Shown here: one piece after another, positions 3,858 to 52,270 of the stretch
How positions within the stretch are numbered: the first letter of the stretch is position 1
Layout of the letters: every line of letters begins with the position of its first letter
DNA from: an uncultured Actinomycetes bacterium
Lineage (GTDB): Bacteria > Actinomycetota > Actinomycetes > Acidothermales > Acidothermaceae
Direction: 5' to 3'
NCBI GenBank assembly: GCA_963799955.1
Contig: CAWCZJ010000009.1
Coordinates: forward strand, 37,325-101,324
DNA length: 64,000 nucleotides
Made by a program: the position numbers and the translations under genes
The notes under the pieces: model-generated
Told to the model about the DNA's origin: nothing
Database searches by the model: none
The model's input: only the letters and a program-made list of their open reading frames with translations

Positions 3858-4064
3858 GATCGCGCGCACGGTAGCCAATCGTGTCGGGAGTGTGTCGCTT
3901 CCGGTGAGCGGCGAACAGGCACCCGGGAAGCCGTGAGGCCCTATCGACACCCCCGAGCCCGCCATGAGCAGGAATCTTCGGCGCAACAGCCAACTGCCCT
4001 AGCGGTTACTCCAAACGAGTGACGGACGCTGCCTGTCGGTCGGGAGGAGCCTGCCTTTGGGGGT

Positions 4065-6901: not shown

Positions 6902-6942
6902 CTGTATCGGTCCTTCGGTCGGCTGGTTCGACAGTACGTCTT

Positions 6943-8148: not shown

Positions 8149-8159
8149 GCGATGTCCCT

Positions 8160-9197
8160 TCAGGAGTGTCGGGCAGGACCATCGTGTCGGCCGGCGAGCA
8201 AGGGCATCGCCGGGTCGAGCGGCACTGCTGTTTGTGCATCGCGGCGCCTCGCCGCAATACCTGACAAGGCCTCCAACACGACCCGATTCGCGAGCATCGC
8301 AGTGATCTCGGCGTGGTCGTAGGGCGGCGAAACCTCGACCACATCGACGCCCGCGACGGGCAGCTCGCGACAGATCCGGCGAACGGCATCGAGCAGTTCG
8401 CGCGCGGTCAAACCACCCGGTTCGGGCGTGCCGGTGCCGGGTGCGTGGCCTGGGTCGCACACGTCGATGTCGACTGACAGGAACACGGCGTCGCAGTCGT
8501 CGAGCGCGATGGCAAAGGCTTCATTCAGGACGGCGAGCAGCCCGCGCGAGACGATCTCGCTCATCTCGTATGAGCGCATCTGCTGTGACGCCATCCAGTC
8601 GAGAGTCTCCGGCTCTGGCCAGTAGCCCCGCAGACCAATCTGCAGAAACCGGTCCCCTCGCGCGGCGCCAGATTCGATGAGCCGGCGCATCGGTTGGCCG
8701 TGGCCGTACAGCGATCCAAAGGTGATGTCGCCGGTGTCAGCGTGCGCGTCGAAGTGCAAGACAGCGACACGACCGAATCCGTAGTGGCGAGCGACACCGG
8801 TGACGTCAGGCAGCGCGATCGAGTGGTCTCCGCCCAGCACAACCGGGATTGCGCCGGCCGCCGCCACCGTCGTAACCGCGCGCTCAAGACTTGCTAGCGA
8901 GCGCTCGATATCGCCGGGCGGCATCTCCACGTCCCCCGCATCGACAACCCGCAGGTCGCGCAGCGCGTCGACGCGCAAGGCGAGGTGCGGTCGGGATCCG
9001 TCGTGCGGCAGGTAGTCAGTCGAACGGATCGCCTGCGGGCCGAACCGCGTGCCGGGGCGATGCGACGTCCCACCGTCGAACGGCGCCCCGACGATGACGA
9101 CGTCAACTCCCGCAAACGATGCCGGGTCGGCGAGGTCGCAACGATCGACGCCCAAGAATGTGACGTCCGGGCCGAACATGGCCCCATACCGGGTCAC
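8160..9197 (-). CDS. speB: Ureohydrolase family enzyme (agmatinase / guanidino-acid hydrolase)
   Basis: 345-aa ORF with all Mn-binding signatures: GGDHS, HFDAHADT, SVDIDVCDP, VEVSPPYD. Substrate specificity cannot be read from these motifs. Confidence 0.85.
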   Translation of the reverse strand: MTRYGAMFGPDVTFLGVDRCDLADPASFAGVDVVIVGAPFDGGTSHRPGTRFGPQAIRSTDYLPHDGSRPHLALRVDALRDLRVVDAGDVEMPPGDIERSLASLERAVTTVAAAGAIPVVLGGDHSIALPDVTGVARHYGFGRVAVLHFDAHADTGDITFGSLYGHGQPMRRLIESGAARGDRFLQIGLRGYWPEPETLDWMASQQMRSYEMSEIVSRGLLAVLNEAFAIALDDCDAVFLSVDIDVCDPGHAPGTGTPEPGGLTARELLDAVRRICRELPVAGVDVVEVSPPYDHAEITAMLANRVVLEALSGIAARRRDAQTAVPLDPAMPLLAGRHDGPARHS

Positions 9198-9376
9198 TTC
9201 ACACCGGCAGCCGACCGGCAGGCAACGCTTGCATGGCGGGACGCTACCACCGAAACGGTGGCGCGATCAGAACGAGACCACGGAATCCCTTGTCATCCGA
9301 CGAAATCAGTGCGATAACCGGAGGGTTCAAAACCGCTGGTGCCAAAAATCCGCCCACATCGCTCCCAGAGGTGCTC

Positions 9377-11170: not shown

Positions 11171-12631
11171 TTACGCGTCGAGGTTGGTCATCACGTGCTT
11201 GATGCGCGTGTAGTCCTCGAAGCCGTACATCGAGAGGTCCTTGCCGTAGCCGCTGTGCTTGAAGCCGCCGTGCGGCATCTCCGCGATGAGCGGGATGTGC
11301 GTGTTGATCCACACGCAGCCGAAGTCGAGACGCTTCGCCATCCGCATCGCCCGCCCGTGATCGCGGGTCCAGACCGATGACGAGAGGCCGTACTCGACGC
11401 TGTTGGCCCACCGGACCGCTTCGTCTTCGTCGCTGAATTTCTGGACCGTGATGACCGGCCCGAAAACCTCGTCGGTGCACGATCTCGTCGCCCTGCCGCA
11501 AATCGGCAACGACCGTCGGCTCGTAGAAATAGCCACGGTCACCGATGCGGTGCCCACCAGCTAGCAACTGCGCGTGGTCGGGCAACCGGTCGACGAATCC
11601 GCTGACCCGTGCGAGCTGGTTCGCGTTGTTGACCGGGCCGTACGCGGCATCAGTATTGGACGGCGGGCCGACGACTGTGCCGCGGGCTTGCTCTGTCAGT
11701 GCAGCGACGAAGTCGCCATAGATGCCGGGTGCCGCGAGCACCCGGGTGGCAGCGGTGCAGTCCTGGCCGGCGTTGAAGTAGCCCGCCATCGCAATGCCCT
11801 CGGCGGTCTTTTCGAGGTCCGCATCATCGAAGACGACGACCGGCGCCTTCCCGCCCAGCTCGAGGTGCACGCGCTTGAGATCGCGCGCGGCCGCGCCGGC
11901 GACTTCCATGCCCGCGCGCACGCTGCCGGTGATGGAGACCATGCTCGGCGTGCGGTGCTCAACCAGCAGCCGCCCCGTGTCGCGTTCGCCGCACACGACG
12001 TTCAGCACGCCCGGCGGAAGGAACTCCGCTGCGATTTCGGCCATCAGCAGCGCGGTCACCGGCGTCGTGTCCGACGGCTTCGAGCACGACCGCATTGCCC
12101 GCCGCGATCGCGGGCGCCCACTTCCAGACGGCCATCATCATCGGGTAGTTCCAGGGCGTTACCTGCGCGCACACGCCGATCGGTTCACGCCTGATGAATG
12201 AGGTGAAACCGGCCATGTACTCCCCCGCGGCCTTACCTTCGAGCACGCGCGCAGCGCCCGCGAAGAAGCGGATCTGGTCGACCATCGGCGGCAGCTCTTC
12301 TGAGGCCGTCAGGGCAAGCGGCTTGCCGGTGTTCTGCGACTCCGCGGCGACAATCTCGTCGGCCCGCGCCTCGATAGCGTCGGCGATGCGCAGCAGCGCA
12401 CGTTGCCTGACAGACGGGGTGGCATCGCGCCAGACCTCGAAGCCCCGCTCCGCCGCGCGCATCGCGCAGATCGACATCGGCCGTCTCCGACACCGGCGCG
12501 GTCGCGAATACCTCCCCGGTGCTCGGGTCGACGATGCCGCTGGTCACGCCCGCCTCAGTGTCGACGTACGCGCCATCGACGAAATTGCGCAGCACGGTGG
12601 TTCTAGGAAGCGCAGTGGGTCCGGCGGCCAT
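11171..12631 (-). pseudogene. NAD-dependent aldehyde dehydrogenase (aminobutyraldehyde dehydrogenase-like), 3 frame breaks
   Basis: ATG at 12631 is preceded by AAGGAG. The protein runs through ORFs 12233..12859 (MAAGPTALPRTTVLRNFVDGAY...), 11959..12477 (...VTPWNYPMMMAVWKWAPAIAAGNAVVLE), 11139..12095 (...ELGGKAP...) and 11171..11557 (...EVFGPV...PHGGFKHSGYGKD...). Switches lie near 12480, 12090 and 11500. Confidence 0.8.
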
Positions 12632-39195: not shown

Positions 39196-39735
39196 GTGAA
39201 TCGCGCCGACGAGGACGACTTCAGGTCGTTCGTCGCCGCGCGGTCGCCGTCCTTGCTGTGGTTCGCCCACCTCTTGACGGGCGATCGCCACGCGGCCGAA
39301 GACATCGTCCAGACCGCGCTGGCCAAGACGGCGGCCGGCTGGTCGCGAGTGCGGCGCAAGGAGAATCCGGAGGGGTATGTCCGCCGGGCGATCGTGAACA
39401 CGCACATCAATGCGATGCGGCGCCGGCCGTGGCGAGAACAACCGCGCGAGCACCTTCCCGAGGACATCGACTCGCGCCGCCGTGAGCACGAACTCGACGA
39501 CCGCGACGCGATGTGGCACGCGCTCGCCGGGTTGCCGCCACGGCAGCGCGCGGTGTTGGTGCTGCGCTACTACGAGGACCTATCCGAATCCGACATCGCC
39601 GACGTGCTCGGCTGCAGTCGAGGCACCGTGAAGAGCCAGGCCGCCAAGGGGCTCCTACACCTAGGCGGATCGTTGCGAAGGAGGACGCGTCAACATGACG
39701 GACGTCGAGCAGTTGCTGCGGGAGACGTTGGCTGA
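39196..39735 (+). CDS. ECF (SigE-family) RNA polymerase sigma factor
   Basis: A GTG at 39196. Region 2 is DIVQTALAKTAAGWSRV...YVRRAIVNTHINAMRR. Region 4 is QRAVLVLRYYEDLSESDIADVLGCSRGTVKSQAAKGL. An alternative C-terminus ...HLRRIVAKEDAST*, reached by a 1-nt shift near 39662, would give an ATGA overlap with the next gene. Confidence 0.85.
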   Translation: MNRADEDDFRSFVAARSPSLLWFAHLLTGDRHAAEDIVQTALAKTAAGWSRVRRKENPEGYVRRAIVNTHINAMRRRPWREQPREHLPEDIDSRRREHELDDRDAMWHALAGLPPRQRAVLVLRYYEDLSESDIADVLGCSRGTVKSQAAKGLLHLGGSLRRRTRQHDGRRAVAAGDVG

Positions 39736-40891
39736 TCCACGTCGCCGGCTTGGCCCTGTCCCCGAGATGTACGACACCGTGCGCGAGCGCGCGCATCAAC
39801 GACGGCGGCGCATGGTCCAGGTCGCGAGCGCATTCACCGCCGTTGTCGTCATCGCCAGCGTTGCCACGTCGATCGGTGTCAACTCAGGACATCGCCGCAG
39901 CAACCAGGTCGCGGCGCCGTCGATCACGCCGTCGCCGCAAACGGGGCAGGCGACGTCGGTCGATCTCGGCAAGGGCAGCACGAGCGCCATGGCGGTTACG
40001 TCATCGGGCGTCTTCGTGGCGCGCCAGCAACCCAATGAACTCCTGCAGGTGTCAGCGACGAATCTTTCGATCACCAAGCGGGTTGCCACACCGGATGCAG
40101 TCGACGACATTGCCGTCGATGCGGCGGCGGGGCGGATATGGACGTGGTCAACCGGCCAAGCGTTCGTCGACGACGCAGGGAAGTCGACCGGCACCGATTC
40201 GACGACCATCCATGTCTACGCCACTTCAAGCTTCGCGATCGACGGTGCCGTCACGGTTCCGACCTACTCCTTCGACGCGGCCGCATTGGACGGACAGCTG
40301 TGGCTAGCGACCAACGACGGCCTCTATGTCGTGACGATTGCGGCCAACGGGCCGGTGGCTTCAAAGGTCATAGGTGGAATCGTGTTTTCGGTTGCTGTCG
40401 ACGCCGTGCGTCACCGAATCCTGTACGGCGAGGCGATCAGCACGCCTGGGGCCGCAAACTCGCTGGGAGACATGGTGATCCACGAGATCGACGCAAAATC
40501 CCACGCCGTGATCGGAGCCAGCTCCCCGCTGCCGATCGGCAAGGAGTCGATCGCAGTGGTCGGCGATCAGATCTGGGTCGGCGGCTACGGGTCAGGTTCC
40601 ACTCCGCGCCTGTTCCACCTCGACGGCTCATCCTTGCAACCTCTAGCAACGCAGCTGTCGGGTGCAGACGACTCACTCGGACCCGGTGCGATCGTCTGGC
40701 CCGGCGCCTCCGTGGTGTGGGTACGGTCCGGCGGCAGCGAAGGGCTGGCTTGCATCGACCCGCAGTCCGGCGCCCTGCTGGAACAGTGGCCAGCGGTGCA
40801 AGGCCCGGTGGCTTCCGTTCGGGGCTACGCGTTCGCGGCTAGCGACGGCTCGCTCGATCAGCTGAGTCTGTCGGGCGACTGCACCGGCTAG
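39695..40891 (+). CDS. Single-pass membrane protein with an extracytoplasmic beta-propeller-like domain (putative ECF partner)
   Basis: 398 aa. The N-terminal cytoplasmic part is followed by RRRRMVQVASAFTAVVVIASVATSIGV (TM). After that come repeated strand-rich units (RIWTWS, QLWLATNDGLYVV, QIWVGGYG, VVWVRSGG). No HxxxCxxC anti-sigma motif is present. Confidence 0.7.
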   Translation: MTDVEQLLRETLADPRRRLGPVPEMYDTVRERAHQRRRRMVQVASAFTAVVVIASVATSIGVNSGHRRSNQVAAPSITPSPQTGQATSVDLGKGSTSAMAVTSSGVFVARQQPNELLQVSATNLSITKRVATPDAVDDIAVDAAAGRIWTWSTGQAFVDDAGKSTGTDSTTIHVYATSSFAIDGAVTVPTYSFDAAALDGQLWLATNDGLYVVTIAANGPVASKVIGGIVFSVAVDAVRHRILYGEAISTPGAANSLGDMVIHEIDAKSHAVIGASSPLPIGKESIAVVGDQIWVGGYGSGSTPRLFHLDGSSLQPLATQLSGADDSLGPGAIVWPGASVVWVRSGGSEGLACIDPQSGALLEQWPAVQGPVASVRGYAFAASDGSLDQLSLSGDCTG

Positions 40892-40957: not shown

Positions 40958-43900
40958 CTACGGCAAGACGGGGACGACGAGGGCGACGGCCGCAGCGACC
41001 CGATCGGCGGCAGCGAGTAGATGCACGGCGCCGATCTGCTCTAACAGCGGCCGCGCGCTCGACAGTGCCTCGGCCGCACCGCGCAGGTCGCCGTCGTCCG
41101 CAAGCCGCGTCGCTAGTTCGACCCGCACCTGGGCGGCCGGATATGCCGCGCCCATCGACGTGAAGATTTCGGCCGCGGCCCGCAGCCCAGCAATGGGGTC
41201 AGGCGACAGGTGCGCGCGCGCTCTTACGAGGTGGCCCTGCAGCAGCCGGAACCGCTGGCCACGCGGGACGGTTTCCAGCCTTTCGACCAGCTCGGTCAGG
41301 CGGGCACGTGCCCCGACCTCGAGCAGCAGGTCCAGCGCCAGGCCGAACGCCAGCGGCATGTCTTCGCTGGTCAGACCAAGGTCAGCCATGCGCTCCACGC
41401 TGTCAGCGGCCAGCGTCGCGGCGGCGCCGCGATTGCCAGCGAAATACGACTCGACGGCATCGCGCATGAGCACCCAGCCGTGCACAACCGGGTCGATCGA
41501 GTCGCGCGCCGGGCCGACCGCGGGAAGCAGCACCGTCGCGTCGTCGCGGCCATACGCAAGCAAGGCGAAGCCAGCCGCGAGGTAGGCCTCCCAGTCGATC
41601 CGGTCGCTGCGCTCGTCAGCGGGATGTCGCTGGCGGATTCCCTCAACCTCGGCCCAGCGGCCAGCCTCGAGGAAGCAGACGGCGAGGTGACCGTCCGCCA
41701 CGATGAGTGAGCCGATCAAGCCAAGTTCTTCGCTGCGCTGTTGGGCTGCGCTCGCCATCCGGGTTGCGGCGGCAAGATCGTCGGGTGCCAGCAGCGCGAC
41801 CTGATTCAGCATCCGCACAACAGCACGTGGGGTGCGGTCGTCACTGCGCGCGGTCGAGCCAGCGTGAACGACCATCGAGAAGCGCCGATAGCCTGCGCCG
41901 CTCGCCCATGCCGCAATCCCATCGAGGAACACATCGAAGTGGGATTCATCGCCGTAGCGCTCGATGTCTGGCAGTGCTTGCATCACGACTCGCTCGCCGA
42001 GCGCGAAGTCACCGGTGCTCTGGGCAGCTACCGAAATCGTCCGTGCCGCGAGGGCGAGCAACCCGACCCGGTCGGGCCGTCCCAGCGAGGCCGCGAAAAC
42101 CTCCTGGGCGAGTGGCACGGACGGCTGTGTATCGCCGCGCACACCGAACATCCGGGAGCGGTTCATGGTCAGGCGCAGCATCGCCTCCTCATCGCCTCGG
42201 CGCTCGGCCGCAAGCTGGCCTGCGGACAACCATCGATCGGTCTCGTCGAGTCGCGCCGCGGCGTCGAGCGCGATGGATGACGCTGCGATCGTGAGCCGGA
42301 TGACAGCTTCGTCCGGCAAGTCGAGTGCTAAAAGTTGGCCGTAGTGGGCGAGGGCGTCGGTCGGCGCACCAACACCAGCCGCATGAACAGCGGCTTGTTC
42401 TAGCAGCAGTGCAGCCCGGTTGCGCAAGGCCTCGACGTCAGGTGCGTCAGGCATCGCCGAGATGGCGTCGAGAATGTGCGCGGCAAGGACGCCCGCGATC
42501 GTGTCGGCGTCGGGCAGCGCGGCCAGGTGCTCAGCGACCGCGAGGTGCCTGGCATGCTTGTCGCGCCGCGACAGCGTGTCATAGGCGCTCGTGCGAAGCA
42601 GCGCTTGTACAAACCGGTATTGCCCGCGTTCGGGTGACCGCGGATCGTTGTCGACGATCAGAATTTCCTTGCGACGCAGGCTTTCCAGCGCCGCGTCGAG
42701 ATCGATATCGGACGGCGCGAGGGCACCGATCCCCGCTCGGGTGAAGCTCAAGCCGAGCACGCTGGCGTCTTGAATTACTCGGCGCTCGGCCGCAGGCAGC
42801 GCATCGAGACGGGCGGCGAGTAACGCCTGCAAGCTGGCTGGCGGCCCGAGAGCCGACAGGTCGAGCGCTCCGACGGCTTCAGGGTCAACGACGTATCGGC
42901 CGCCCTGGGCGACGACGACGTCACGGTCGATGAGCGCGCGGATAGTCTCGACGGCATACAGCGGTACGCCCTCCGCGCGGGCCACGAGTTCGGTCCGTAG
43001 GTCGCGGGGCAGGTCGGCCACCAACCCGTCGAGAAGCCGCACCATCACGTCGTCCGGCAATGGCTCGAGAAAGAGGGTGCTCGACCGCCGGCCGGCACCA
43101 ATGCCTGCACGGCGGCTCGTGACCTCGGGGCGGGCCAAGGCAAGCACCATGATGGCGGCCCGGCTGACATCGAGCAGGTAGTCAAGGAAGTCCAGAAAGC
43201 CGTCGTCGGCCCATTGCAAGTCTTCGACAATCATGGTGACCGACTCGTCGCCAGCACACAGCGACTCGAAGAATGCGCGCCAGCAAGCGAAAAGGTCGGC
43301 CTGGTCGAACACGGCGTCCGACAGTCCGAGCAAGCTGGCAAGGCGTGGGCGCAATACCTCGCGCTCGCCCTCCTCACTGACGTGGCGCGCGAGACGTTCG
43401 TCGAGCGCCGCCGTGACGGTCGCATCGTCGTCCGTCTCAGTTACACGCAAGAGCGAGCGCACCATCTCCGCGACAACGCGGCCCGCGACACCTTGGCCGT
43501 AGGAGAGGCAGCGACCGCGAAGCCAGTGCGTGCGCTGAGTGATGGAGTCGGCGTACTTCTCGAATTCCCATGCCAGTCGGGATTTTCCGATGCCGGGCTC
43601 GCCGGCAACGAGCACCAACCTGGCCCGTCGCTCCTCTGCCGTCGCGTGGAAAAGCTCCTTCACCAGGCGCAGTTCGCGGTCGCGCCCGACGAACGGCGCT
43701 TCGAGCCCGTCGACCCGTTGCGCACCGCCCGCGGCCGCGGTCGTGCGTACGGCGTGGAACAGTTCGACGGGGAACGACTTCCCCTTCAGTTCATGGGTTC
43801 CGGTCGACACATACGCCAGTGACGCAGTCGTGAGCGACCGCGTCGTGTCGTCAACCCAGACCTCACCGGGAGCCGCCGCGGCCTGAATCCGAGCGGCCGT

Positions 43901-44527
43901 GTTGACGGCGTCACCCGCGACGACTCCCTGTCCGTCGGAAGCGATCGCGCCCAGGGTGACGGCGACCTGCCCGGTGCTCACACCGACCCGCATCTGCAAC
44001 GCCTCGAGGCCGAACTCCTCGCCGAGTACACGCGCGGTGGCCACCAGGTCGAGCCCGGCTCGCACCGCTCGCTCGGCGTCATCCTCGCGAGCGGCAGGCA
44101 CTCCCCAGACAGCAAAGACGGCGTCGCCGATGAACTTCTCTACCGTGCCGTTGTAACGCTCGATGATCGCCCGGGCGCGCTCGAAATACGTCGAGAGCAG
44201 GTCGCGCACAGCCTCGGGGTCGCGCGCCTCGGCGATCGGTGTGAAGCCGACCATGTCGGCGAACAGCAGCGACGCCGTCCGTCTCTCGGACACCGGATCC
44301 GACGGCAAGCGGTCGCTATGGCCCGCTTGCGCGGGCACCGAGGCTCCGCTCTGACGCCCAGGGACCGGCGTCCCACATTCACTGCAGAACCGACCACCGC
44401 CGAGCGGCGCACCGCACACGCCGCACGCCTGCGACATCGGGTGGCCGCATTCGCTGCAGAATTTCGCGCCGACCCGATTCGCCGCCCCACAGCTGCTGCA
44501 GTCGGTCTCCGACCCGGCGCCAGGCAC
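40958..44527 (-). CDS. Double zinc ribbon / class III adenylate-guanylate cyclase / STAND P-loop NTPase / TPR multidomain protein
   Basis: A GTG at 44527 lies 5 nt after GAAGGAGG. Domains: CSSCG..FCSECG..CGVCG..FCSECG; cyclase motifs LLFADMVGFT, VEKFIGDAVFAVWG, GDAVNTAARIQ; FVGRDRELRL...LVAGEPGIGKSRL; then ~600 aa of helical repeats. The reading frame is uninterrupted. Confidence 0.85.
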   Translation of the reverse strand: MPGAGSETDCSSCGAANRVGAKFCSECGHPMSQACGVCGAPLGGGRFCSECGTPVPGRQSGASVPAQAGHSDRLPSDPVSERRTASLLFADMVGFTPIAEARDPEAVRDLLSTYFERARAIIERYNGTVEKFIGDAVFAVWGVPAAREDDAERAVRAGLDLVATARVLGEEFGLEALQMRVGVSTGQVAVTLGAIASDGQGVVAGDAVNTAARIQAAAAPGEVWVDDTTRSLTTASLAYVSTGTHELKGKSFPVELFHAVRTTAAAGGAQRVDGLEAPFVGRDRELRLVKELFHATAEERRARLVLVAGEPGIGKSRLAWEFEKYADSITQRTHWLRGRCLSYGQGVAGRVVAEMVRSLLRVTETDDDATVTAALDERLARHVSEEGEREVLRPRLASLLGLSDAVFDQADLFACWRAFFESLCAGDESVTMIVEDLQWADDGFLDFLDYLLDVSRAAIMVLALARPEVTSRRAGIGAGRRSSTLFLEPLPDDVMVRLLDGLVADLPRDLRTELVARAEGVPLYAVETIRALIDRDVVVAQGGRYVVDPEAVGALDLSALGPPASLQALLAARLDALPAAERRVIQDASVLGLSFTRAGIGALAPSDIDLDAALESLRRKEILIVDNDPRSPERGQYRFVQALLRTSAYDTLSRRDKHARHLAVAEHLAALPDADTIAGVLAAHILDAISAMPDAPDVEALRNRAALLLEQAAVHAAGVGAPTDALAHYGQLLALDLPDEAVIRLTIAASSIALDAAARLDETDRWLSAGQLAAERRGDEEAMLRLTMNRSRMFGVRGDTQPSVPLAQEVFAASLGRPDRVGLLALAARTISVAAQSTGDFALGERVVMQALPDIERYGDESHFDVFLDGIAAWASGAGYRRFSMVVHAGSTARSDDRTPRAVVRMLNQVALLAPDDLAAATRMASAAQQRSEELGLIGSLIVADGHLAVCFLEAGRWAEVEGIRQRHPADERSDRIDWEAYLAAGFALLAYGRDDATVLLPAVGPARDSIDPVVHGWVLMRDAVESYFAGNRGAAATLAADSVERMADLGLTSEDMPLAFGLALDLLLEVGARARLTELVERLETVPRGQRFRLLQGHLVRARAHLSPDPIAGLRAAAEIFTSMGAAYPAAQVRVELATRLADDGDLRGAAEALSSARPLLEQIGAVHLLAAADRVAAAVALVVPVLP

Positions 44528-44722
44528 GACTGCCTCCTTCGTACTACGCCGCGACTCGGGGTACCGGCCGCAGCCAGTCCGTGATCGGGACACGCAAAGG
44601 GTACGCCCGCGCGGGGCGGAAACGGCATCGAGGCTGACTCACCAATTGAGGCGCCGATATGCAACGCTTCCCCGACGCAACTGCACGCATAGTCGTGACC
44701 GCAGGACGGCGAGGAGAGCGGC

Positions 44723-46393
44723 GTGGCGGGCTCCAAAAGTAGTGGTCGCTACCGCGACGCATTGCGGCAGCGCGACTTTCGACTCATGGTCATCGCCTAC
44801 GTCGTCGATGCGCTCGGCGGCTGGGCGTACTCCGTCGTCCTCGCGGTCTACGTCTGGGATCGCACGCACTCGACTCAATGGCTGGCCGCGATGGCGTCGG
44901 CAGGTTGGCTGACCAGCTTGCTCGTCGGCGGCTACGCAGGTGTGCTCGCCGACCGCTACGAACGCACTCGGGTGATGATCGTCTCAGCCCTCGCGAACGC
45001 CGCGATCATGTGCGTGATCGCCGTCGTCGTCGGTACCAATTCGCCGCTGCTGCTGCTCCTGTTCCTGCGGGTCATCTCTGCCGCCGCCGGATCGCCCTAC
45101 CGGCCCGCCTCAGGAGCGCTCACCCCCGAGATTGTGGGCGAGCGAGATCTTGCCGCCGCCAACGGGCTTTTCTCGACACTGGAGAGCTTGACCGTCGTGC
45201 TCGGCCCCGCAGCCGGTGGTCTGCTGCTGCTCACCGGAGAACCGGTCACCGGCGTCATCGTGAACGCCGCGAGCTTCGTCGTAGCAGCCGGCATCGTCGC
45301 GCGGCTGCACGTTCGAGCGACTGGCGACGCCGCACCCGGCGAGAACGCCTTCAAGCAGTGGCTGGTCGGCATCAGGGCTCTAGGTCGAGAGCGCGTCGCC
45401 TTGGTGCTCGTCTTGTTCTGCGGGCTCGACTCTGCCGTCTACGGCGCGAGCACCGTCATCTACGTGCCGCTCTCAGAACACCTCGGAACCGGCGCCAACG
45501 GGTACAGCTACCTCCTTGCCGGGGCCGCTCTCGGTGGCGTGCTTGCCGCCGGTCTGGCGAACAAACTCGGCAGCTCCAGCCGCCTTGCGCCGGTCATCTT
45601 TGGCAGCATCCTGTTGCAGGCATTGCCTTTCGCTGTGACCGCGACCGTGCACGCGCCTGTGCTGGCATTCATCCTGCAGGTGATCTCGGGTGCCGGGATG
45701 ATCGTCGTCGACGTGCTGGCGTACACGGCACTGCAACGCGACCTGCCACGCGAAGTCCTCGGCCGGGTGCTCGGCGTATTCGATGCGATCGTCCTCGGGT
45801 TCATCGTCGCGGCCAGCTTCGTGGGCGCCGCCTTGCTCACGTCGCACGGCCTGCACACCACGCTGCTGGTGATCGGATTCGCCTTCCCCCTGCTGGCGTT
45901 GATCGGCCTGCCTGCGGTGTTGAAAGCCGATCGCGAGTCTGCGGCGGCGGTCGCACGGCTAGCCCCAACGGTACGGTTGCTCGGTGCCCTCGATCTCTTC
46001 ACCGGCGCAAGCAACTCCGTGCTCGAGAGATTGGCAAAGGCAGCAGTGGAACAAGAAACCCCGGCTGGCACGGTCATCATCCGCGAAGGCGACGAGGCCG
46101 ATGCGCTGTGGATCCTCGTCACCGGCAAGCTCGGCATCGAGGCAACCAATCCCGACGGCAATACGGTGGAGTTGCCCGACGTCGACGCGCCCTCGTATGT
46201 CGGCGAACTTGGTCTGCTCCACAACCGGCCGCGCAGTGCCACTGTCACGACCAAAGAGGCGTGCACGTTGCTGCGCATCGAAGGCAAGGAATTCCTCAAC
46301 GCTCTCGAGGCGGCACCACCGAGCGTGTCGTTGAAGACGCTTGCCGGCGTCCGTCTTGCCCGCACTCCGGGCCAAAGCGAGGTGCAGGAATAG
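44723..46393 (+). CDS. MFS transporter fused to a C-terminal cyclic-nucleotide-binding domain
   Basis: A GTG at 44723 lies 7 nt after gaggag. The first ~410 aa are polytopic and MFS_3-like (DALGGWAYSVVLAVYV..., GVLADRYERTRVM). The C-terminal CNB domain has VIIREGDEADALWILVTGKL and the phosphate-binding cassette YVGELGLLHNRPRSATVTT. Confidence 0.85.
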   Translation: MAGSKSSGRYRDALRQRDFRLMVIAYVVDALGGWAYSVVLAVYVWDRTHSTQWLAAMASAGWLTSLLVGGYAGVLADRYERTRVMIVSALANAAIMCVIAVVVGTNSPLLLLLFLRVISAAAGSPYRPASGALTPEIVGERDLAAANGLFSTLESLTVVLGPAAGGLLLLTGEPVTGVIVNAASFVVAAGIVARLHVRATGDAAPGENAFKQWLVGIRALGRERVALVLVLFCGLDSAVYGASTVIYVPLSEHLGTGANGYSYLLAGAALGGVLAAGLANKLGSSSRLAPVIFGSILLQALPFAVTATVHAPVLAFILQVISGAGMIVVDVLAYTALQRDLPREVLGRVLGVFDAIVLGFIVAASFVGAALLTSHGLHTTLLVIGFAFPLLALIGLPAVLKADRESAAAVARLAPTVRLLGALDLFTGASNSVLERLAKAAVEQETPAGTVIIREGDEADALWILVTGKLGIEATNPDGNTVELPDVDAPSYVGELGLLHNRPRSATVTTKEACTLLRIEGKEFLNALEAAPPSVSLKTLAGVRLARTPGQSEVQE

Positions 46394-46394
46394 C

Positions 46395-47273
46395 GTGCGC
46401 GCTTTCCTGTGCGGGGTGCGCGGCTCGACGCCGGCACCTGGCCCCGACTTCGTCCGGTACGGCGGCCACACATCGTCCGTCGCCCTCGCACACGACGGTG
46501 AGCGGCCGAGCTTCGTGATCGACGCAGGCACCGGATTGCGGCGGGTGACGAACCTCCTCAACGGCGCACCCTTTCGAGGCACCATCGTGTTGAGCCATTT
46601 GCACTGGGATCACGTGCACGGCTTGCCGTTCTTCCAGGGCGGTGCGAGAGGGACATCGCGTCAACGTCTTGCTGCCGGCGATCGACGGCGACGCGGTCGG
46701 CACCCTCGCCCGCGGACTCTCGCCGCCGCACTTCCCGATCGGACCGACGCAGATTACGGGACCGGTTGGACCTTCGACCCTTTGATCGAAGGTCCGCACG
46801 AACTCGAGGGCTTCGAAGTCCTTGTCCGGGAGATCCCGCACAAGGGCGGCCGGACGTTCGGGTTCCGCGTGTCCGACGAAGCCGGATCGATCGCCTACCT
46901 CGGCGACCATTTCCCTCTGGGCGAAGGGGCCGGGCCAGAAGGGCTCGGCGCCTACCATGAGGCGGCGCTCGCCCTTGCGCGTGACGTCGACGTGCTCCTG
47001 CACGACGCGCAGTTCCTGGCCGCACAGTTTCCGGGCGTGACCTACCTCGGACACTCGGCAATCGAGTACGCCATCGGGCTTGCAGTGCGTGCGGGCGCCA
47101 AGTCGCTGATGCTCTTCCACCACGCACCTGATCGCACCGATGACGAACTCGACGCCATCGTGGCGATGTTTGCGAACGCGCCCGTGCGAGTGATCGCCGC
47201 CACGCAGGAAACCGTCGCAGCCCTGGGTGTCCCTGGCAGCCCCATCATGACGACACTCAGCGCTGCGAGGTAG
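46395..47273 (+). CDS. MBL-fold metallo-hydrolase; two nearby compensating frame breaks
   Basis: A GTG at 46395 lies 2 nt after the MFS stop. The HxHxDH motif is VLSHLHWDHVHGLPFF. Between about 46650 and 46765 the sensible sequence (VNVLLPAIDGDAVGTLARGLSPPHFPIGPTQI) lies in a different frame from the flanks. Confidence 0.7.
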   Translation: MRAFLCGVRGSTPAPGPDFVRYGGHTSSVALAHDGERPSFVIDAGTGLRRVTNLLNGAPFRGTIVLSHLHWDHVHGLPFFQGGARGTSRQRLAAGDRRRRGRHPRPRTLAAALPDRTDADYGTGWTFDPLIEGPHELEGFEVLVREIPHKGGRTFGFRVSDEAGSIAYLGDHFPLGEGAGPEGLGAYHEAALALARDVDVLLHDAQFLAAQFPGVTYLGHSAIEYAIGLAVRAGAKSLMLFHHAPDRTDDELDAIVAMFANAPVRVIAATQETVAALGVPGSPIMTTLSAAR

Positions 47274-48408: not shown

Positions 48409-49984
48409 TCAGCGCGGCCTCGGACCAGCCGGACCCTGATTGCCTGGATTGCCGCCGGTCGGCGGGAAGCGGAACTTGGAGAGATCCGGCATCTTCATGC
48501 CCGGTGGCAACTGGGCCGGCAAACCGAGGCCACCGTCAGCGCCGGGCAACGAGCGGGTGAGCCCGGGCGGCAACGCTGCAGGTGGTGCGCCTCCTGGGCG
48601 TCCGCCCGGCCGGCCACCCTTGCCCTTCTTGCCCTTCTTCACAGCCTTCGTCGCGCGCCGCGCGCCCATGCCTGGGAGGCCGCCCATGCCGGCCATCTGC
48701 TTCATCATCTTGCGGGCTTCGAAGAAGCGGTCGACGAGGCTGTTGACCTCAGCCACAGTGACGCCGGAACCCTTGGCGATGCGCACTCGTCGCGACCCGT
48801 TGATGATCTTCGGGTCCTCGCGCTCGATCGGCGTCATCGAGCGGATGATGGCGGCGATGCGGTCGACGTCCTTGTCATCGACCTGCGCGATCTGCTCCTT
48901 CATCTGCCCCATGCCCGGCAACATGCCGAGCAGGTTGCCGATAGGCCCCATCTTGCGCAGCATCATCATCTGCTCGAGGAAGTCCTCGAGGGTCAGCTCA
49001 CCTTCGGTGAGCTTGCGGGCGGTCTCTTCGGCCTCACCGGCGTCATACGCACTTTGGGTCTGCTCGATCAGCGTCAGGATGTCGCCCATACCGAGAATGC
49101 GCGAAGCCATGCGCTCGGGATGGAACGTGTCGAAGTCTTCGAGCTTCTCCCCCGTGCTGGCGAACATGATTTGACGGCCAGTCAGTGACGCCACCGACAA
49201 GGCAGCACCACCGCGGGCGTCACCATCGAGCTTCGTGAGCACGACGCCGTCGAAACCGACGCCGTCGAGGAATGCCTGCGCGGTGTTGACGGCGTCCTGG
49301 CCGAGCATGGCGTCGACAACGAACAGGATCTCGTTCGGGTCGACGGCATCGCGGATGTCGATCGCCTGCTGCATCATCTCGGCGTCGACGCCGAGGCGGC
49401 CCGCCGTGTCGACGATGACGATGTCGTGACCCATGCGCTTGGCGTGCTCGATGGCGGCCTTCGACACCGCGACCGGATCGCCAACGCCACTACCCGGCTC
49501 GGGGGCGAAGACCGGGACGCCAGCCTGCTTGCCGATCACCTGAAGCTGCTAGCACGGCGTTGGGCCGCTGCAAGTCGGCGGCTACCAAGAGTGGTGCATG
49601 CCCCTGCCCCGACAGCCACTTGGCGAGCTTGCCGGCCAGCGTCGTCTTACCCGCACCCTGCAGGCCGGCCAGCATGATCACGGTCGGGGGGTTCTTCGCG
49701 TAGCGGAGACGCCTGGTCTGGCCGCCGAGGATCTGGACCAGTTCCTCGTTGACGATCGAGATGACCTGCTGCGCCGGGTTCAGCGCTTGGGAGACCGCCG
49801 CCCCGCGCGAACGCTCCTTGACCGCGTCGACGAAGTCCCTGACCACCGACAGGGCGACGTCAGCCTCAAGAAGCGCGATGCGGATCTCGCGGGTGGTCGC
49901 GTCGATGTCGGCATCCGACAACCGACCCTTGCCGCGCAGGTTCTTGAAGACCGACTCGAGCCGGTCAGAGAGGGTGTCGAACAC
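48409..49984 (-). CDS. ffh: Signal recognition particle protein Ffh; frame break near 49545
   Basis: A GTG at 49984 starts VFDTLSDRLESVFKNLRG...LAGLQGAGKTT...VAADLQRPNAV (ORF 49490..50083). This continues as QLQVIGKQAGVPVF...DTAGR...TKLDGDARGG...M-domain (ORF 48409..49539). At the junction gtg-ctag-cagcttcag has one nucleotide too many. Confidence 0.9.
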
Positions 49985-50009
49985 GCGCGCCAGCCTACCG
50001 AGCCTTAAG

Positions 50010-52270
50010 TCAACTCCGCGGCGCGCTGCCCCGCAGTGCCTCTTCGACAGCGCGGCGAACCGCTTCTGCCCGGTCTGGTGCAAGCGGGCGACCGCCCCGG
50101 TCGGTCACGTAGAACGCGTCGACCACCTCAGCACCGAGCGTCTCGACCCGAGCGGATTGCACGTCGAGCCCCTCGGCGGCCAGCACGCGAGTCACCGTGA
50201 AAAGCAGGCCCGGCCGGTCGTGAGCCCGCACCTCCAGGACCGTCGCCTTGTCGGACGCGCCGCCCGGCAACAGCACAGTGGCCGGTGGCAACACGATCGA
50301 CTTTCGGGTCGCCGCGCTGGCTTCGCGGCGGGCCAGCTTCTGGGCCACGTCGAGACCGCCCTCGATGGCCCGGCGCATGTCGTCTTGGATCCGCGCCGGC
50401 TCGACTTCGGAGAAGTAGGTCGGTTCAACATCGAAGACAGTGACCGCTGTCGGACCGACCGATGTCGCGACTGCTGCCCGGACGCCGAGTCTGTGCAAGG
50501 CCAGTACCCCCGCCGACCTCCAGAGCAGGCCCGGCTGATCAGGCGCGATCACCGTGATGCGGCTGTGGTCAGGAGTGCCCTCAGAGATGACCGCGAGCTG
50601 GCCAGCCTCCGCGAGCTTCACGATCGCGGGCGGCAGTTCCGCGACCGGCGGCGGAACCGCCTCGCCGGCGAGCATGGCCGCCGTCCGGCTGACGAGATCG
50701 GCAACAAGGCGAGCGCGCCAGTCGTCCCACATCGGGGTGCCCGTAGCGCGCGCATCGGCTTCGGTCAACGCGTGCAGCAACTCGAGAACGAGTGGCGAGC
50801 CCACTGCTTGCGCGACGGCCGAGACCGTGGCCGGATCGTCGAGGTCGCGTCTAGTCGCAGTTTGCGACAGCAAGCAAGTGATGGCGCACCAGCGTCGTCA
50901 ACACCACACTGTCGCGCTCGTTCATGCCGAGCCTGGCCGCGATCCCCGGCATGAGCGCAGCACCAGCGATCGAATGGTCGCCGTCGCTTCCCTTGCCGAT
51001 GTCGTGGAACAAGGAGCCCAGCAACAACAGGTCGGGTCGCGCAACACGACGTGTTAGGGCGGCGGCTTCGATTGCGGTTTCGACGAGGTGGCGATCGACC
51101 GTGTAGCGATGCAACGGATTGTGCTGCCTGCGGTAGCGGACGCTCTCCCACTCAGGGATCAATCGCGCCATGAGCCCGGCCTGGTCGAGCGCCTCGAACA
51201 CGACCAACGCCGGCCTGCCAGCACCAAGTAACGCGACAAATGCATCGCGCGCCGACGACGGCCAGGGGTTGGGCATCGGCGGGCACTTGTTGGCGAGCAA
51301 GTCGATCGTCGGCGGCGACAGCGGCAACCCAACTTGAGCAGCGGCAGCAGCAGCGCGCACGACAAGAGTCGGGTCGGGAGTCGGATCGACTCCGCGCGCG
51401 AGCACCACCTCGCCGTCCTGCTCGACGACACCTTCTGCGACCGGCTTGCGTTCCGCCTTCGGACGTCGACGCAAGCTGCCTTCGACCGAACGCCACGTCA
51501 CGTCACTCGCGTAAGAAACCGTGCGCGCAGCTTCGCTGATCGCACGCAACAACTCGTCGGCGTCGGCCATGCCAAGACGAGCCGCGATCGCCTCTTGCTC
51601 CTGTGCGACCATGCGAGTCGTCGGTCGGCCCGCGACTTCCTGCAACGTGTCGCGGACGTCGATCAGCCGGCGATATGCGGCCCGCACCGGCGGTCCGGGG
51701 CCGGCGGCAACCCACGCCGCAGCGATTGCTTCGAGTGCGTGCACGTCGCGGAGTCCGCCGCGCGCTTCCTTCAGGTCGGGCTCGAGCAGGAACGCCACTT
51801 CGCCAAGCCGTTCGGCCCGCTCGCGCACCATGTCGTGCAGCTCCGGCAACCGCTTCGATGCGCGCGAGCGCCACTGGCCGAACGCGTGCTCGCGCAAGCG
51901 AGCAGTGAGATCGGGCACCCCGGCGATGTGCCGGGCGTGCAGCATCCCGAGGGCGGCCTTCATGTCGGAGTTCGCGACAGACACCGCGTCGGCGACCGTG
52001 CGTACCGAGTGGTCGAGCTGCCACCCGGCGTCCCAGATCGGATACCAGACCTGGTCGGCGATCTGCACGACATCAGACCTACCGTCGTGCAGCATCATCA
52101 CGTCGAGGTCGCTGCCCGGGCCGAGTTCGCTGCGCCCGTAACCGCCGACCGCGACAAGTGCTACGCCATCGGCGTCACCGAGCAGTTCGCGCAGCCAGGC
52201 ATCGGCCTTGCGCGGTTCGCTCGGCCCTCAACGCACTGAGATCACGGGCCGAGTCAGCCGGCGACTCCAC
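50010..52270 (-). CDS. glnD: [Protein-PII] uridylyltransferase/uridylyl-removing enzyme GlnD; two frame breaks
   Basis: A GTG at 52270 starts VESPADSARDLSALRAERTAQ, followed by a break near 52205. Then ADAWLRELLGDADGVALVAVGGYGRSELGPGSDLDVMMLHDG...HD domain (LFHDIGKG), a break near 50872, and ...two ACT domains (ORF 50010..50873). Confidence 0.85.

Follow-up and report, generated by a model that had tools for sequence, protein, structure and literature searches.

A conserved actinobacterial gene cassette of a STAND-type cyclase, a CNB-domain MFS permease and an MBL-fold hydrolase, a candidate cyclic-nucleotide signalling unit

The window analyzed here is a stretch of 64,000 nucleotides from an uncultured soil bacterium of the Actinomycetes. 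Within it, positions 40958-47273 carry three genes: a cyclase fused to a STAND-type NTPase (cyclase-STAND) on the reverse strand and, divergent from it on the forward strand, an MFS permease with a cyclic-nucleotide-binding domain (MFS-CNB) and an MBL-fold hydrolase (Table 1). All three ORFs were found where the original prediction had placed them, and each of the motifs it quoted was present in the translations. The longest cyclase-STAND ORF ran from 40958 to 44593 (minus strand, 1211 aa), while the predicted length of 1189 aa and the predicted spacer of 195 bp both matched a GTG start at 44527. The MBL gene had been placed two nt downstream of the MFS-CNB gene; the real gap is 1 nt, from the stop codon (46391-46393) to the GTG at 46395. 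A 7-mer, TACGCCC, was invariant in all seven aligned sequences of the divergent intergenic region, and no match to a sigma-70-like promoter was found there (44528..44722).

Table 1. Features of the three-gene locus (window coordinates; aa numbering of the respective protein)
Feature	Coordinates	Strand	Basis or remark
Cyclase-STAND gene	40958..44527	-	~1189 aa from GTG 44527; ORF list, translation, Pfam
Double zinc ribbon, N-terminal, 8 Cys	44372..44509 (aa 29-74)	-	Pfam DZR aa 32-74, E 2e-7
Class III nucleotidyl cyclase catalytic domain	43775..44281 (aa 105-273)	-	Pfam Guanylate_cyc, E 4e-23
AAA_16 (STAND-type) NTPase domain	43160..43696 (aa 300-478)	-	Pfam, E 4e-20
Putative sensor region, C-terminal, ~730 aa	40961..43159	-	Fast-evolving; without Pfam match in this protein
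Intergenic region, cyclase / MFS-CNB	44528..44722	.	195 bp, divergent; kept among close relatives
MFS-CNB gene, 556 aa	44723..46393	+	Pfam MFS_1/MFS_3 and cNMP_binding
12-TM MFS permease domain, DHA3/EntS-like exporter type	44762..45934 (aa 14-404)	+	Pfam MFS_3
Cyclic-nucleotide-binding domain, C-terminal, cytoplasmic	46055..46309 (aa 445-529)	+	Pfam, E 3e-20
MBL-fold hydrolase gene, 292 aa once repaired	46395..47273	+	Pfam Lactamase_B_2; motif SHLHWDH
Out-of-frame MBL segment	46646..46757	+	DNA alignment with L002, L003, L005, L006

The cyclase domain scored 82.5 bits against PF00211 (cutoff 21.9), which identifies it as a class III nucleotidyl cyclase, and its closest PDB matches were Cya2 (2W01), CyaB (3R5G) and CyaC (1WC1). 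Residues D113, D157, R202, N231, R235 and K270/K272 aligned with the catalytic positions of these three enzymes and, together with K153, were kept in 53 to 56 of 56 homologous cyclases. The class III catalytic set was complete (two metal Asp and the transition-state Asn/Arg pair, both as predicted, and the phosphate-binding Arg/Lys), and Lys153 is, again as predicted, of the adenine type; the guanylyl cyclase Cya2 carries Glu there. The second substrate-specificity position is non-canonical, with V224 here and Met in 43 of the 56 homologues. To judge from these residues, the enzyme probably makes cAMP, although its nucleotide product is not certain because the second specificity residue is Val/Met and not Asp, Thr or Ser. 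Upstream of the catalytic domain, the eight Cys of the zinc ribbon were kept in 50 to 53 of the 56 homologues. The domain that follows it scored 73.5 bits against AAA_16 (cutoff 32.6), as a STAND NTPase would, and its Walker A (GEPGIGKS) and Walker B (VEDLQWAD) motifs were both kept in 55 to 56 of the 56. Guanylate_cyc, AAA_16 and TPR were the Pfam families expected for this gene; the first two matched, while neither TPR nor any other Pfam family was detected at E < 0.01 in the C-terminal 730 aa, although homologues at other loci do match TPR_MalT/TPR_12. Identity to the orthologue in L002 fell from 87 to 100% in aa 100-700 to 54 to 68% in aa 700-1100.

Rv0386, Rv1358 and Rv2488c of M. tuberculosis combine a class III adenylyl cyclase with a STAND/AAA ATPase module. 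Cyclase-STAND shares with these proteins, and with the TOMM system kinase/cyclase fusions (TIGR03903), the order of class III cyclase, AAA_16/NB-ARC-like NTPase and helical C-terminal region, but differs from both in its N-terminal double zinc ribbon. It also lacks the kinase domain of TIGR03903. Membership in that NCBIfam family was ruled out: the alignment was partial (aa 121-711, E 2e-56) and its 191.5 bits fell below the cutoff of 705.75. Pfam detected no LuxR-type HTH at the C-terminus, and the substrate pair is Lys plus Val/Met, compared to Gln-Asn in Rv0386.

Both Pfam families expected for the MFS-CNB protein, MFS_3 (E 2e-27, 96 bits) and cNMP_binding, were matched, together with MFS_1 (E 1e-30, 107 bits), and the two-domain architecture was common to more than 1100 homologues. 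Assignment of the N-terminal part to the MFS was further supported by about 12 hydrophobic segments, by 12 helices in the AF2 model (pLDDT 82) and by motif A (GVLADRYERTR), of which G73, D77 and R81 were invariant in a 25-sequence family alignment. Among NCBIfam models, this domain scored 131 bits for the TIGR00900 H+ antiporter and 91 bits for EntS, both below cutoff, and the specific equivalogs EntS, Tap, Mef and Tet(V) were all rejected as far below cutoff. The best Foldseek matches were NorA, SotB and MdfA. In the model, the TM12 helix (377-423) continues into the predicted CNB domain, which scored 72.4 bits against PF00027 (cutoff 27.5) and carries the phosphate-binding cassette GELGLLHNRPRSATV. 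This cassette aligned with GELALLYNAPRAATV of PKA-R/PKG, and G494, E495, R504 and A506 were invariant in the 25 sequences. The sequence thus bears out the intact phosphate-binding cassette of the original prediction; it has the canonical form and does not vary within the family.

The mycobacterial proteins of the Rv3728 / Rv3239c type are presumably MFS-CNB fusions as well, likewise with an MFS permease followed by a cytoplasmic CNB domain. They are, however, about 1050 aa long in M. tuberculosis and carry a further C-terminal esterase-like domain, whereas the protein in the window is a compact one of 556 aa and two domains. No Mycobacterium locus was present among the 78 best MFS-CNB relatives, and we found no description in the literature of a conserved operon that joins proteins of the Rv3728 / Rv3239c type to a STAND cyclase and an MBL protein. 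These mycobacterial proteins have been listed only as putative MFS efflux pumps whose function is not known (PMC6300501). No solved structure combining MFS and CNB was found among the Foldseek matches. By sequence or by fold, the CNB half matched, among others, SLC9C1 (8PCZ), MlotiK1 and a prokaryotic CNG channel. SLC9C1 (the sperm Na+/H+ exchanger), MlotiK1 and SthK are likewise membrane transport proteins with a C-terminal CNB domain attached via a helical linker, but here the transport domain is an MFS exporter, and gene linkage ties the effector to a cyclase of its own and to a putative PDE.

For the MBL protein, Lactamase_B_2 was matched as expected (E 1e-13, 55 bits), whereas PF02112, the model of typical class II cAMP phosphodiesterases, gave no match at E <= 0.1 in any of 30 family members, and that identity was therefore rejected. 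The motif [T/S]HxHxDH has been defined for atypical class II PDEs (PMC9293780), and SHLHWDH on the Lactamase_B_2 fold fits this signature. With Rv1339, C. glutamicum CpdA and B. subtilis YhfI (PMC9293780), the protein thus shares fold, motif and association with cAMP genes; its fold matched YhfI (6KNS) with a TM score of 0.66 (query-normalised) or 0.79 (target-normalised). It is nevertheless no orthologue of Rv1339/CpdA, since it scored 41 bits against the cyclic-nucleotide PDE model NF041851 (cutoff 400), with 30 of 30 family members sub-threshold. Nor did it qualify as the ribonuclease Z equivalog TIGR02651 (45 bits, cutoff 293), to which only about 70 C-terminal residues aligned, so that the protein is equally weakly placed between the two models. 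The best Foldseek matches of its AF2 model (pLDDT 85) were RNase Z (1Y44), YhfI, BA1088 (1ZKP), the PhnP family and the anti-Pycsar protein Apyc1, to which it is similar in fold. Sequence comparison thus sets it apart from Rv1339/CpdA as a distinct subfamily, with invariant motifs of its own (GVRGSTP, SPPHFP and IPHKGG), and one genome (L087) encodes both a member of this subfamily and a separate Apyc1/Rv1339-like MBL protein adjoining murI.

In the window, the MBL gene is broken by two compensating indels relative to four related MAGs, a 2-bp deletion at ~46646-46650 (GCGAGAGAG to GCGAGAG) and a 2-bp insertion at ~46753-46757, and blastn comparisons consistently returned the same two. Between the two, about 36 codons are read out of frame, the family-invariant SPPHFP motif among them, yet the ORF remains open; the alternative frame of this segment reads EGHRVNVLLPAIDGDAVGTLARGLSPPHFPIGPTQ, matching the orthologues. 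Since two other genes of the window, ffh and glnD, are frameshifted as well, an error of assembly is the most likely cause; a real frameshift would mean a very recent inactivation. The repaired protein was 93% identical to the intact orthologue P0121.

Conservation of the neighbourhood had been set beforehand as a test of the prediction, and the outcome was positive; the ground named for rejection, absence of the trio from every other genome, clearly does not apply. Among 76 scorable MFS-CNB loci, drawn from actinobacterial genomes at one per species, a DZR-cyclase-AAA_16 homologue directly adjoined the MFS-CNB gene in about 45 (43 via ORF calling, plus L006 and L030 via tblastn) and lay within 8 kb in at least 51. 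Three arrangements of the adjacent cyclase occurred: divergent from MFS-CNB, co-directional and upstream of it, or downstream of it. Of the 19 co-directional cases, 17 had ORFs that abutted or overlapped (-4 to +3 nt), and one locus (L016) showed an apparent cyclase-MFS-CNB fusion ORF. No cyclase was found within 8 kb of MFS-CNB in the Microbacterium loci, and the Naasia loci had no more than a short gene with a cyclase domain, at a distance of several genes. The MBL gene was present in 17 to 18 of the 76 loci, always adjoining a cyclase or an MFS-CNB gene. In the reverse test, five of six members of the MBL subfamily on long contigs adjoined MFS-CNB, and cyclase-STAND was at most two genes away in four of the six. 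One locus of this test (L080) has the same order of cyclase, MFS-CNB and MBL at a different chromosomal site. Many related loci held extra conserved genes (GAF, S8 peptidase, Crp-like regulator and an acidic DDxxGH repeat peptide). That cyclase-STAND genes might be dense enough in these genomes to produce such adjacency by chance is unlikely, given that the ORFs abut. Gene linkage is conserved and resistant to rearrangement.

The cassette is flanked by two housekeeping genes, rpsP and ffh, and does not stand out in GC content. It had been described as a lineage-specific insertion, which is misleading: the same rpsP-ffh site is occupied by the cassette in relatives with just 71% identity in MFS-CNB, and in other actinobacterial lineages the cassette is found at other genomic sites. 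Rather than having been inserted in this genome alone, the module is old and has undergone differential loss. Some close relatives retained MFS-CNB at this locus after losing the cyclase (L007, L008) or the MBL gene (L009), so these partners are dispensable or replaceable. Values of dN/dS against orthologues were 0.04-0.17 across all three genes (cyclase-STAND 0.12-0.17, MFS-CNB 0.04-0.16, repaired MBL frame 0.08-0.16), indicating purifying selection. The original prediction was thus right about selection, whereas its argument from the lack of frame breaks over 5.4 kb is weak given the indel rate of the window.

These observations suggest a three-step model. By analogy with STAND and class III cyclase biology, a ligand would be sensed by the fast-evolving C-terminal region of cyclase-STAND, and nucleotide-dependent oligomerisation of AAA_16 would then bring the N-terminal cyclase domains together as active dimers that make cAMP. 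As the domain architecture and the conserved operon linkage suggest, cAMP would bind the cytoplasmic CNB domain, which in the model is joined to TM12 by one continuous helix, and could thereby alter the activity of a DHA3/EntS-like proton-coupled exporter. Finally, the co-transcribed MBL protein, placed by fold in the RNase Z / YhfI / Apyc1 phosphodiesterase branch, may hydrolyse the cyclic nucleotide and reset the switch. Going by association and fold, it probably degrades the signal.

The last step has a competitor in which cyclase and MFS-CNB are coupled, but the MBL protein is an RNase Z/PhnP-like enzyme that acts on another phosphodiester (RNA, a phosphonate or a cyclic-phosphate metabolite) or on the substrate of the transporter. 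Its best sequence matches were indeed to RNase Z, among models as well as PDB entries, over the ~70 C-terminal residues only, source annotations of its homologues read 'ribonuclease BN' or 'phosphoribosyl 1,2-cyclic phosphodiesterase', and one of the six sampled homologues (L087) had no cNMP-related neighbours. However, RNase Z and PhnP scores were all far under the curated cutoffs, and the genes that recur beside it encode cyclases and CNB proteins, some of the latter not transporters: in L082, the MBL gene is flanked by two MFS-CNB genes and a glutaminase-STAS-CNB gene. In four further loci the gene is co-operonic with a second cyclase (at most 27 nt apart in L044, L051 and L053, and 21 nt in L029). 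We regard this alternative as unlikely. It is also conceivable, if quite improbable, that the cyclic nucleotide itself is the cargo of the permease, the CNB domain serving as a sensor at the substrate level, and that the MBL protein degrades whatever is left unexported, in a kind of homeostat. To our knowledge, no MFS exporter of cAMP has been characterised, nor has an exporter behind extracellular mycobacterial cAMP been identified. Many related loci, moreover, offer other possible cargo or targets in their GAF, S8 peptidase, Crp-like and DDxxGH repeat genes. On the other hand, NCBIfam (DHA3/EntS-like) and fold (NorA/MdfA-like) both place the MFS half among exporters, and the sole features common to all recurrent neighbours are cNMP synthesis, binding or putative degradation. 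Very high extracellular accumulation of cAMP in mycobacterial cultures (PMC11107214) would fit such export too. Such an arrangement is a special case of the three-step model with the substrate specified.

A Pycsar-like anti-phage defence, where a STAND sensor would switch on the cyclase, a CNB membrane protein would be the effector and an Apyc1-like MBL protein the safety switch, we consider highly improbable. Its logic is similar to that of Pycsar (PycC plus a CNB-TM effector) in that a cyclase adjoins a CNB membrane protein, a STAND NTPase with a sensor domain that evolves fast is what one typically finds in immune sensors, and Apyc1 was among the fold matches of the MBL protein. In PADLOC, PycC models matched the cyclase domain with 60 bits, and models of Pycsar effectors the CNB domain with 40 bits, but these matches reflect generic domain homology, and the MBL protein had none. 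In contrast to Pycsar, the cyclase bears a purine-type Lys, and the effector, rather than a small pore-forming TM module, is a complete MFS transporter of 12 TM helices, which has an intact motif A and is under strong purifying selection. Furthermore, the housekeeping context and the synteny in relatives speak of vertical conservation, and the additional genes at related loci are Crp-type regulators and metabolic genes, not defence genes.

We found no published biochemistry for any member of the cassette families. Of the signal-to-transport module that was predicted as new, the linkage held and the cassette has apparently escaped description, whereas transporters regulated by a CNB domain have a precedent in SLC9C1. 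Weighing the evidence together, we lean towards reading the three genes as the minimal form of a cassette for cyclic-nucleotide signalling, most likely by cAMP, that is real, conserved in actinobacteria and apparently undescribed. Since they recur as neighbours in many related bacteria, the cyclase, the MFS-CNB permease and the MBL-fold hydrolase very likely act jointly as a signal-controlled transport unit.

All three open reading frames of the cassette, encoding a cyclase-STAND protein, an MFS permease with a C-terminal cyclic-nucleotide-binding domain (MFS-CNB) and an MBL-fold hydrolase, were found in the window, as was every motif quoted for them in the original prediction. Conservation of the neighbourhood, a check that had been set beforehand, was borne out for both partners of the permease. 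A profile scan for MFS-CNB proteins across one genome per GTDB species gave 78 loci (L numbers denote related loci from other genomes), which were then searched with the window proteins and their ORFs clustered. A DZR-cyclase-AAA_16 homologue was the immediate neighbour of the MFS-CNB gene in about 45 of the 76 scorable loci, and in at least 51 the distance was no more than 8 kb; the neighbouring homologues were typically 45 to 56% identical to the window cyclase over residues 32 to 750. This adjacency survives rearrangement. The two genes are divergent in the window and in L029, L036, L044, L051, L053, L054, L055, and L080; the cyclase follows immediately downstream in L027, L028, L034, L039, L048, L052, L057, L066, and L068; and of the 19 loci where it lies upstream and co-directional, 17 have ORFs that abut or overlap (-4 to +3 nt). 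L016 carries an apparent single ORF of 1777 aa joining cyclase-STAND to MFS-CNB, which is either a Rosetta-stone fusion or the result of a stop codon lost in a long-read MAG.

The MBL subfamily was present in 17 to 18 loci, every time beside a cyclase or MFS-CNB gene, with spacings of 21 nt from the cyclase in L029 and of at most 27 nt downstream of a second cyclase in L044, L051, and L053. Linkage was reciprocal: when the search started from six MBL-subfamily members (63 to 70% identical) on long contigs, MFS-CNB adjoined the MBL gene in five and a cyclase-STAND gene lay within two genes in four. L080 repeats the window's gene order at an unrelated chromosomal site, and in L082 the MBL gene sits between two MFS-CNB genes, beside a glutaminase-STAS-CNB gene. 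The order in L083, L085, and L086 is MBL, MFS-CNB, a conserved gene of 430 to 450 aa and a convergent cyclase-STAND; the additional gene, found in this one lineage and without a Pfam match, may be a fourth component. All three cassette genes are under purifying selection (dN/dS 0.04 to 0.17). At the rpsP-ffh site of the Acidothermaceae-like group, L007 and L008 are without the cyclase and L009 keeps only an MBL remnant, and because of this differential loss we regard MFS-CNB as the core, with partners that can be lost or supplied from elsewhere. Microbacterium loci have MFS-CNB without a cyclase within 8 kb, and in Naasia loci the sole cyclase-related gene is a short one encoding a cyclase domain, several genes from MFS-CNB.

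Coordinates of the cassette, its protein domains and associated features (coordinates of L-numbered loci are their own)
Feature	Locus or protein	Position	Strand	Remark
GGDEF-EAL protein gene	window	1980-3986	-	c-di-GMP turnover; far end of window
ECF sigma factor gene	window	39196-39735	+	immediately upstream of cyclase (window coordinates)
398-aa gene	window	39695-40891	+	overlaps ECF sigma gene; immediately upstream of cyclase (window coordinates)
Cyclase-STAND gene	window	40958-44527	-	
Region encoding cyclase aa 700-1100	window	40961-42500	-	
Double zinc ribbon (DZR)	cyclase-STAND	aa 32-74		Pfam E 2e-7
Guanylate_cyc	cyclase-STAND	aa 105-273		Pfam E 4e-23
AAA_16	cyclase-STAND	aa 300-478		Pfam E 4e-20
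Divergent intergenic region	window	44528-44722		
MFS-CNB gene	window	44723-46393	+	
MFS_1 / MFS_3	MFS-CNB	aa 14-404		Pfam E 1e-30 / 2e-27
cNMP_binding	MFS-CNB	aa 445-529		Pfam E 3e-20
MBL gene	window	46395-47273	+	GTG start
Lactamase_B_2	MBL			Pfam E 1e-13
2-bp deletion in MBL gene	window	about 46646-46650		inside GAGAGAG run
2-bp insertion in MBL gene	window	about 46753-46757		
ffh (essential gene)	window	48409-50083	-	split by 1-nt insertion at 49551
glnD	window	50010-52101	-	split by 1-nt insertion at 50874
Further 1-nt insertion	window	~52208		near glnD start
GAF, S8 peptidase and Crp/Fnr-type set	L025	9708-11952		accompanies cyclase and MFS-CNB genes
GAF, S8 peptidase and Crp/Fnr-type set	L021	1528-3759		accompanies cyclase and MFS-CNB genes
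Acidic repeat ORF	L025	~12040-12480	+	
Acidic repeat ORF	L021	3836-4132	+	
430-450-aa gene	L083	10694-12040		between MFS-CNB and convergent cyclase-STAND
430-450-aa gene	L085	9696-11027		between MFS-CNB and convergent cyclase-STAND
430-450-aa gene	L086	9699-10997		between MFS-CNB and convergent cyclase-STAND
Joined cyclase-STAND/MFS-CNB ORF	L016	4332-9665	+	
Second MBL gene	L087	1-448	-	annotated Anti-Pycsar_Apyc1/Lactamase_B_2

The solved structures closest to the cyclase are Cya2 (2W01), CyaB (3R5G), and CyaC (1WC1). The window protein has the metal aspartates (D113 and D157), the transition-state pair (Asn231/Arg235) and, for phosphate binding, Arg202 and Lys270/272, and these residues are kept in 53 to 56 of the 56 homologous cyclases gathered from the related loci. 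The Walker A and B motifs and the full set of eight cysteines in the double zinc ribbon are conserved as well. Lys153 aligns with the Glu of the guanylyl cyclase Cya2 and with the Lys of its engineered adenylyl version and, standing at the specificity position, points to ATP as the substrate. The metal aspartates, Asn/Arg pair and adenine-type lysine originally read from the sequence thus stand, but the partner specificity position, a Thr in CyaB and CyaC, is Val224 in the window cyclase and Met in 43 of the 56 homologues, so the product indicated by the purine-specificity residues is probable rather than certain. The Pfam scan detected neither TPR nor any other domain in the C-terminal 730 aa of the window protein, a difference from the original account; a TPR assignment for it derives solely from homologues. 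Compared with the orthologue in L002, the catalytic and NTPase parts are 87 to 100% identical, while residues 700 to 1100 are only 54 to 68% identical to L002 and L005 and 87 to 94% identical to L003. Such a profile is what a STAND protein whose sensor evolves fast would be expected to show, and it suggests either that the sensor domain is diversifying or that close strains exchange alleles.

MFS-CNB has about 12 hydrophobic segments. In an alignment of 25 members (58 to 96% identity), the Gly, Asp, and Arg of its motif A (GVLADRYERTR) are invariant, as are Gly494, Glu495, Arg504, and Ala506 of the phosphate-binding cassette (GELGLLHNRPRSATV). The permease is nearest to DHA3 H+ antiporter/EntS exporters in NCBIfam, with scores under every curated cutoff. 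In the AlphaFold model (pLDDT 82), which has 12 TM helices, the TM12 helix (residues 377 to 423) continues straight into the CNB domain. Foldseek matched one half to the drug/H+ antiporters NorA, SotB, and MdfA and the other to PKA-R/CNG-type domains, and none of its matches was a solved structure with both MFS and CNB. An exact-sequence look-up of the window protein gave no match.

The MBL gene starts 1 nt past the stop codon of MFS-CNB. A point absent from the original prediction is that this gene is not intact: DNA alignment with four orthologous loci showed it to be disrupted by a 2-bp deletion and, about 105 nt downstream, a 2-bp insertion. Between the two indels the annotated frame is nonsense (GTSRQRLAAGDRRRRGRHPRP...), and the +1 frame reads EGHRVNVLLPAIDGDAVGTLARGLSPPHFPIGPTQ, identical to the orthologues and including the family-invariant residues S110, P112, H113, F114, and P115. 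The repaired protein of 292 aa is 93% identical to a database protein representing 88 member sequences, and its frame has a dN/dS of 0.08 against the orthologues. Frame-disrupting indels also occur in window genes expected to be intact: the insertions that split ffh and glnD are consistent against three related MAGs, which indicates indel errors of assembly and bears on how the MBL frameshift is read. Because these two genes are also broken, and given the dN/dS of the repaired frame, the MBL frameshift is most likely an assembly artefact. A very recent genuine inactivation is conceivable, since it would be unusual for two errors to compensate each other exactly at a distance of 105 nt. Against the same three MAGs, another insertion was seen near the glnD start. 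Elsewhere in the window, overlapping same-strand ORFs at 4065-9266 were considered as one frameshifted gene; Pfam ruled this out, identifying four distinct and intact genes, for an aldehyde dehydrogenase, an aminotransferase, a saccharopine dehydrogenase and a member of the arginase family.

Fold comparison of the MBL model (pLDDT 85) did not separate RNase Z, YhfI, and PhnP-family proteins from Apyc1, all of which, along with BA1088 and AMP/GMP-bound Brucella MBLs, matched with TM scores of 0.55 to 0.66. Sequence and profile searches against the PDB gave partial RNase Z matches only and did not reach YhfI. All 30 family members scanned matched RNase Z models, over the C-terminal third only, and all 30 also matched the NCBIfam "cyclic nucleotide-degrading phosphodiesterase" model with similar scores, both being about tenfold under the cutoffs. 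The class II cAMP phosphodiesterase (PDE) family PF02112, suggested by the original prediction, was not matched; neither it nor PF23023 appeared at E <= 0.1 in the Pfam scan of these 30 members, and a precomputed PF23023 match was present on four homologues among the matches listed. The metal motif SHLHWDH fits [T/S]HxHxDH, a proposed signature of the atypical class II PDEs Rv1339, CpdA, and YhfI (PMC9293780). The genome of L087 encodes a member of this subfamily and also a separate Apyc1/Rv1339-like MBL, which indicates that the two types are coexisting paralogues, and since both are carried there the window MBL belongs to a distinct paralogous subfamily and is not an Rv1339 orthologue. The second MBL gene of L087 adjoins murI, the position that Rv1339 occupies in M. 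tuberculosis. That the window MBL acts on a cyclic nucleotide is argued chiefly from its neighbours, which share cyclic-nucleotide synthesis or binding, and a role for it other than as a PDE seems unlikely to us.

G+C content is 63 to 69% across the whole window, with no compositional break at the cassette. The nearest genomes are uncultured soil Acidothermaceae MAGs (L002 to L006), whose MFS-CNB proteins are 93 to 97% identical to that of the window. Both flanks are conserved housekeeping blocks, one made up of lepB, rplS, trmD, rimM, and rpsP and the other of an amidohydrolase gene, ffh, glnD, glnB, amtB, and ftsY. The ECF sigma factor gene and the 398-aa gene beside it, a possible anti-sigma factor gene that gave no meaningful match in the Pfam scan, are syntenic in all Acidothermaceae-like relatives and do not belong to the module in other lineages. 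The GGDEF-EAL gene is a second nucleotide-signalling gene of the window and appears unrelated to the cassette. An alignment of the divergent intergenic region contained no CRP-like TGTGA-N6-TCACA palindrome; the 7-mer TACGCCC was invariant in seven loci, with otherwise poorly conserved flanking sequence. A scan for promoters and terminators at the locus showed no excess over shuffles.

In 32 to 35 related loci, three further genes extend the cassette. Their products are a GAF protein, an S8 subtilisin-like peptidase and a Crp/Fnr-type CNB-HTH regulator (about 248, 260 and 228 aa, respectively); two to three tandem cyclase paralogues and a stand-alone CNB protein of 135 aa are often present too. 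A small, very acidic ORF lies beside the cyclase/MFS-CNB module in 32 of 79 related loci; its 2 to 8 repeats of [DE][DE][VTA][QE]GH, set apart by spacers rich in Arg and Lys, give it the appearance of a multi-core precursor or of a peptide that binds metal. None of these four (GAF protein, S8 peptidase, Crp-type regulator, acidic repeat ORF) was found in the window. The additional genes may hint at a further output pathway controlled by the module.

From the observed anatomy, residues, selection and linkage, we infer that the cassette is, somewhat more probably than otherwise, a cAMP-type writer, effector, and eraser. Ligand binding at the STAND module would cause oligomerisation and thereby dimerisation of the class III cyclase domains; the cyclic nucleotide would bind the cytoplasmic CNB domain and, via the TM12-CNB helix, modulate an exporter-type MFS; and the MBL would hydrolyse it. 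A Pycsar-like defence system is very improbable and was rejected as the main model: PADLOC does report PycC/CNB matches, but these are to generic domains only, and the housekeeping genes around the locus, its vertical conservation, the cyclase's purine-type Lys and the intactness of the transporter speak against such a system. Within the writer, effector and eraser model, a special case that we hold to be quite unlikely is that cAMP itself is the exported substrate. MFS-CNB would then be a cyclic-nucleotide-gated pump for cAMP efflux in actinobacteria, which its own substrate opens via the CNB domain; with the STAND cyclase and the MBL PDE it would form a self-contained module to make, export, and degrade cAMP.

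Cyclases and cNMP-binding proteins are numerous in Actinobacteria, M. tuberculosis among them, and the majority of the effectors remain orphans. Both class III cyclases linked to STAND modules and cAMP PDEs of the MBL type belong to known kinds. A eukaryotic precedent for a secondary transporter regulated by a CNB domain is SLC9C1, which was a fold match of the CNB half. MFS-CNB fusions are known from annotation; published work regards them only as putative drug-efflux pumps, and those of M. tuberculosis (Rv3728/Rv3239c) figure there as putative efflux pumps (PMC6300501). In the literature on Rv3728/Rv3239c, on actinobacterial MFS, CNB, and cyclase proteins, and on cAMP export, we found no description of the cassette, of a conserved operon-level coupling of cyclase, MFS-CNB, and MBL, of a cyclase dedicated to an MFS-CNB transporter, or of the MBL subfamily as a recurrent third partner. 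Here, in many actinobacterial lineages, MFS-CNB shows operon-level linkage with a dedicated cyclase under STAND regulation and with a distinct MBL subfamily, and this linkage yields a concrete, testable writer/effector/eraser unit. It points to a candidate for the first bacterial secondary transporter under direct cyclic-nucleotide regulation and to a new family of candidate phosphodiesterases for cyclic nucleotides. An actinobacterial cAMP efflux pump has long been sought, and MFS-CNB is a candidate for this export route. If it is indeed a cAMP-gated cAMP exporter, the same principle would account for the MFS-CNB proteins of mycobacteria, which are so far uncharacterised.
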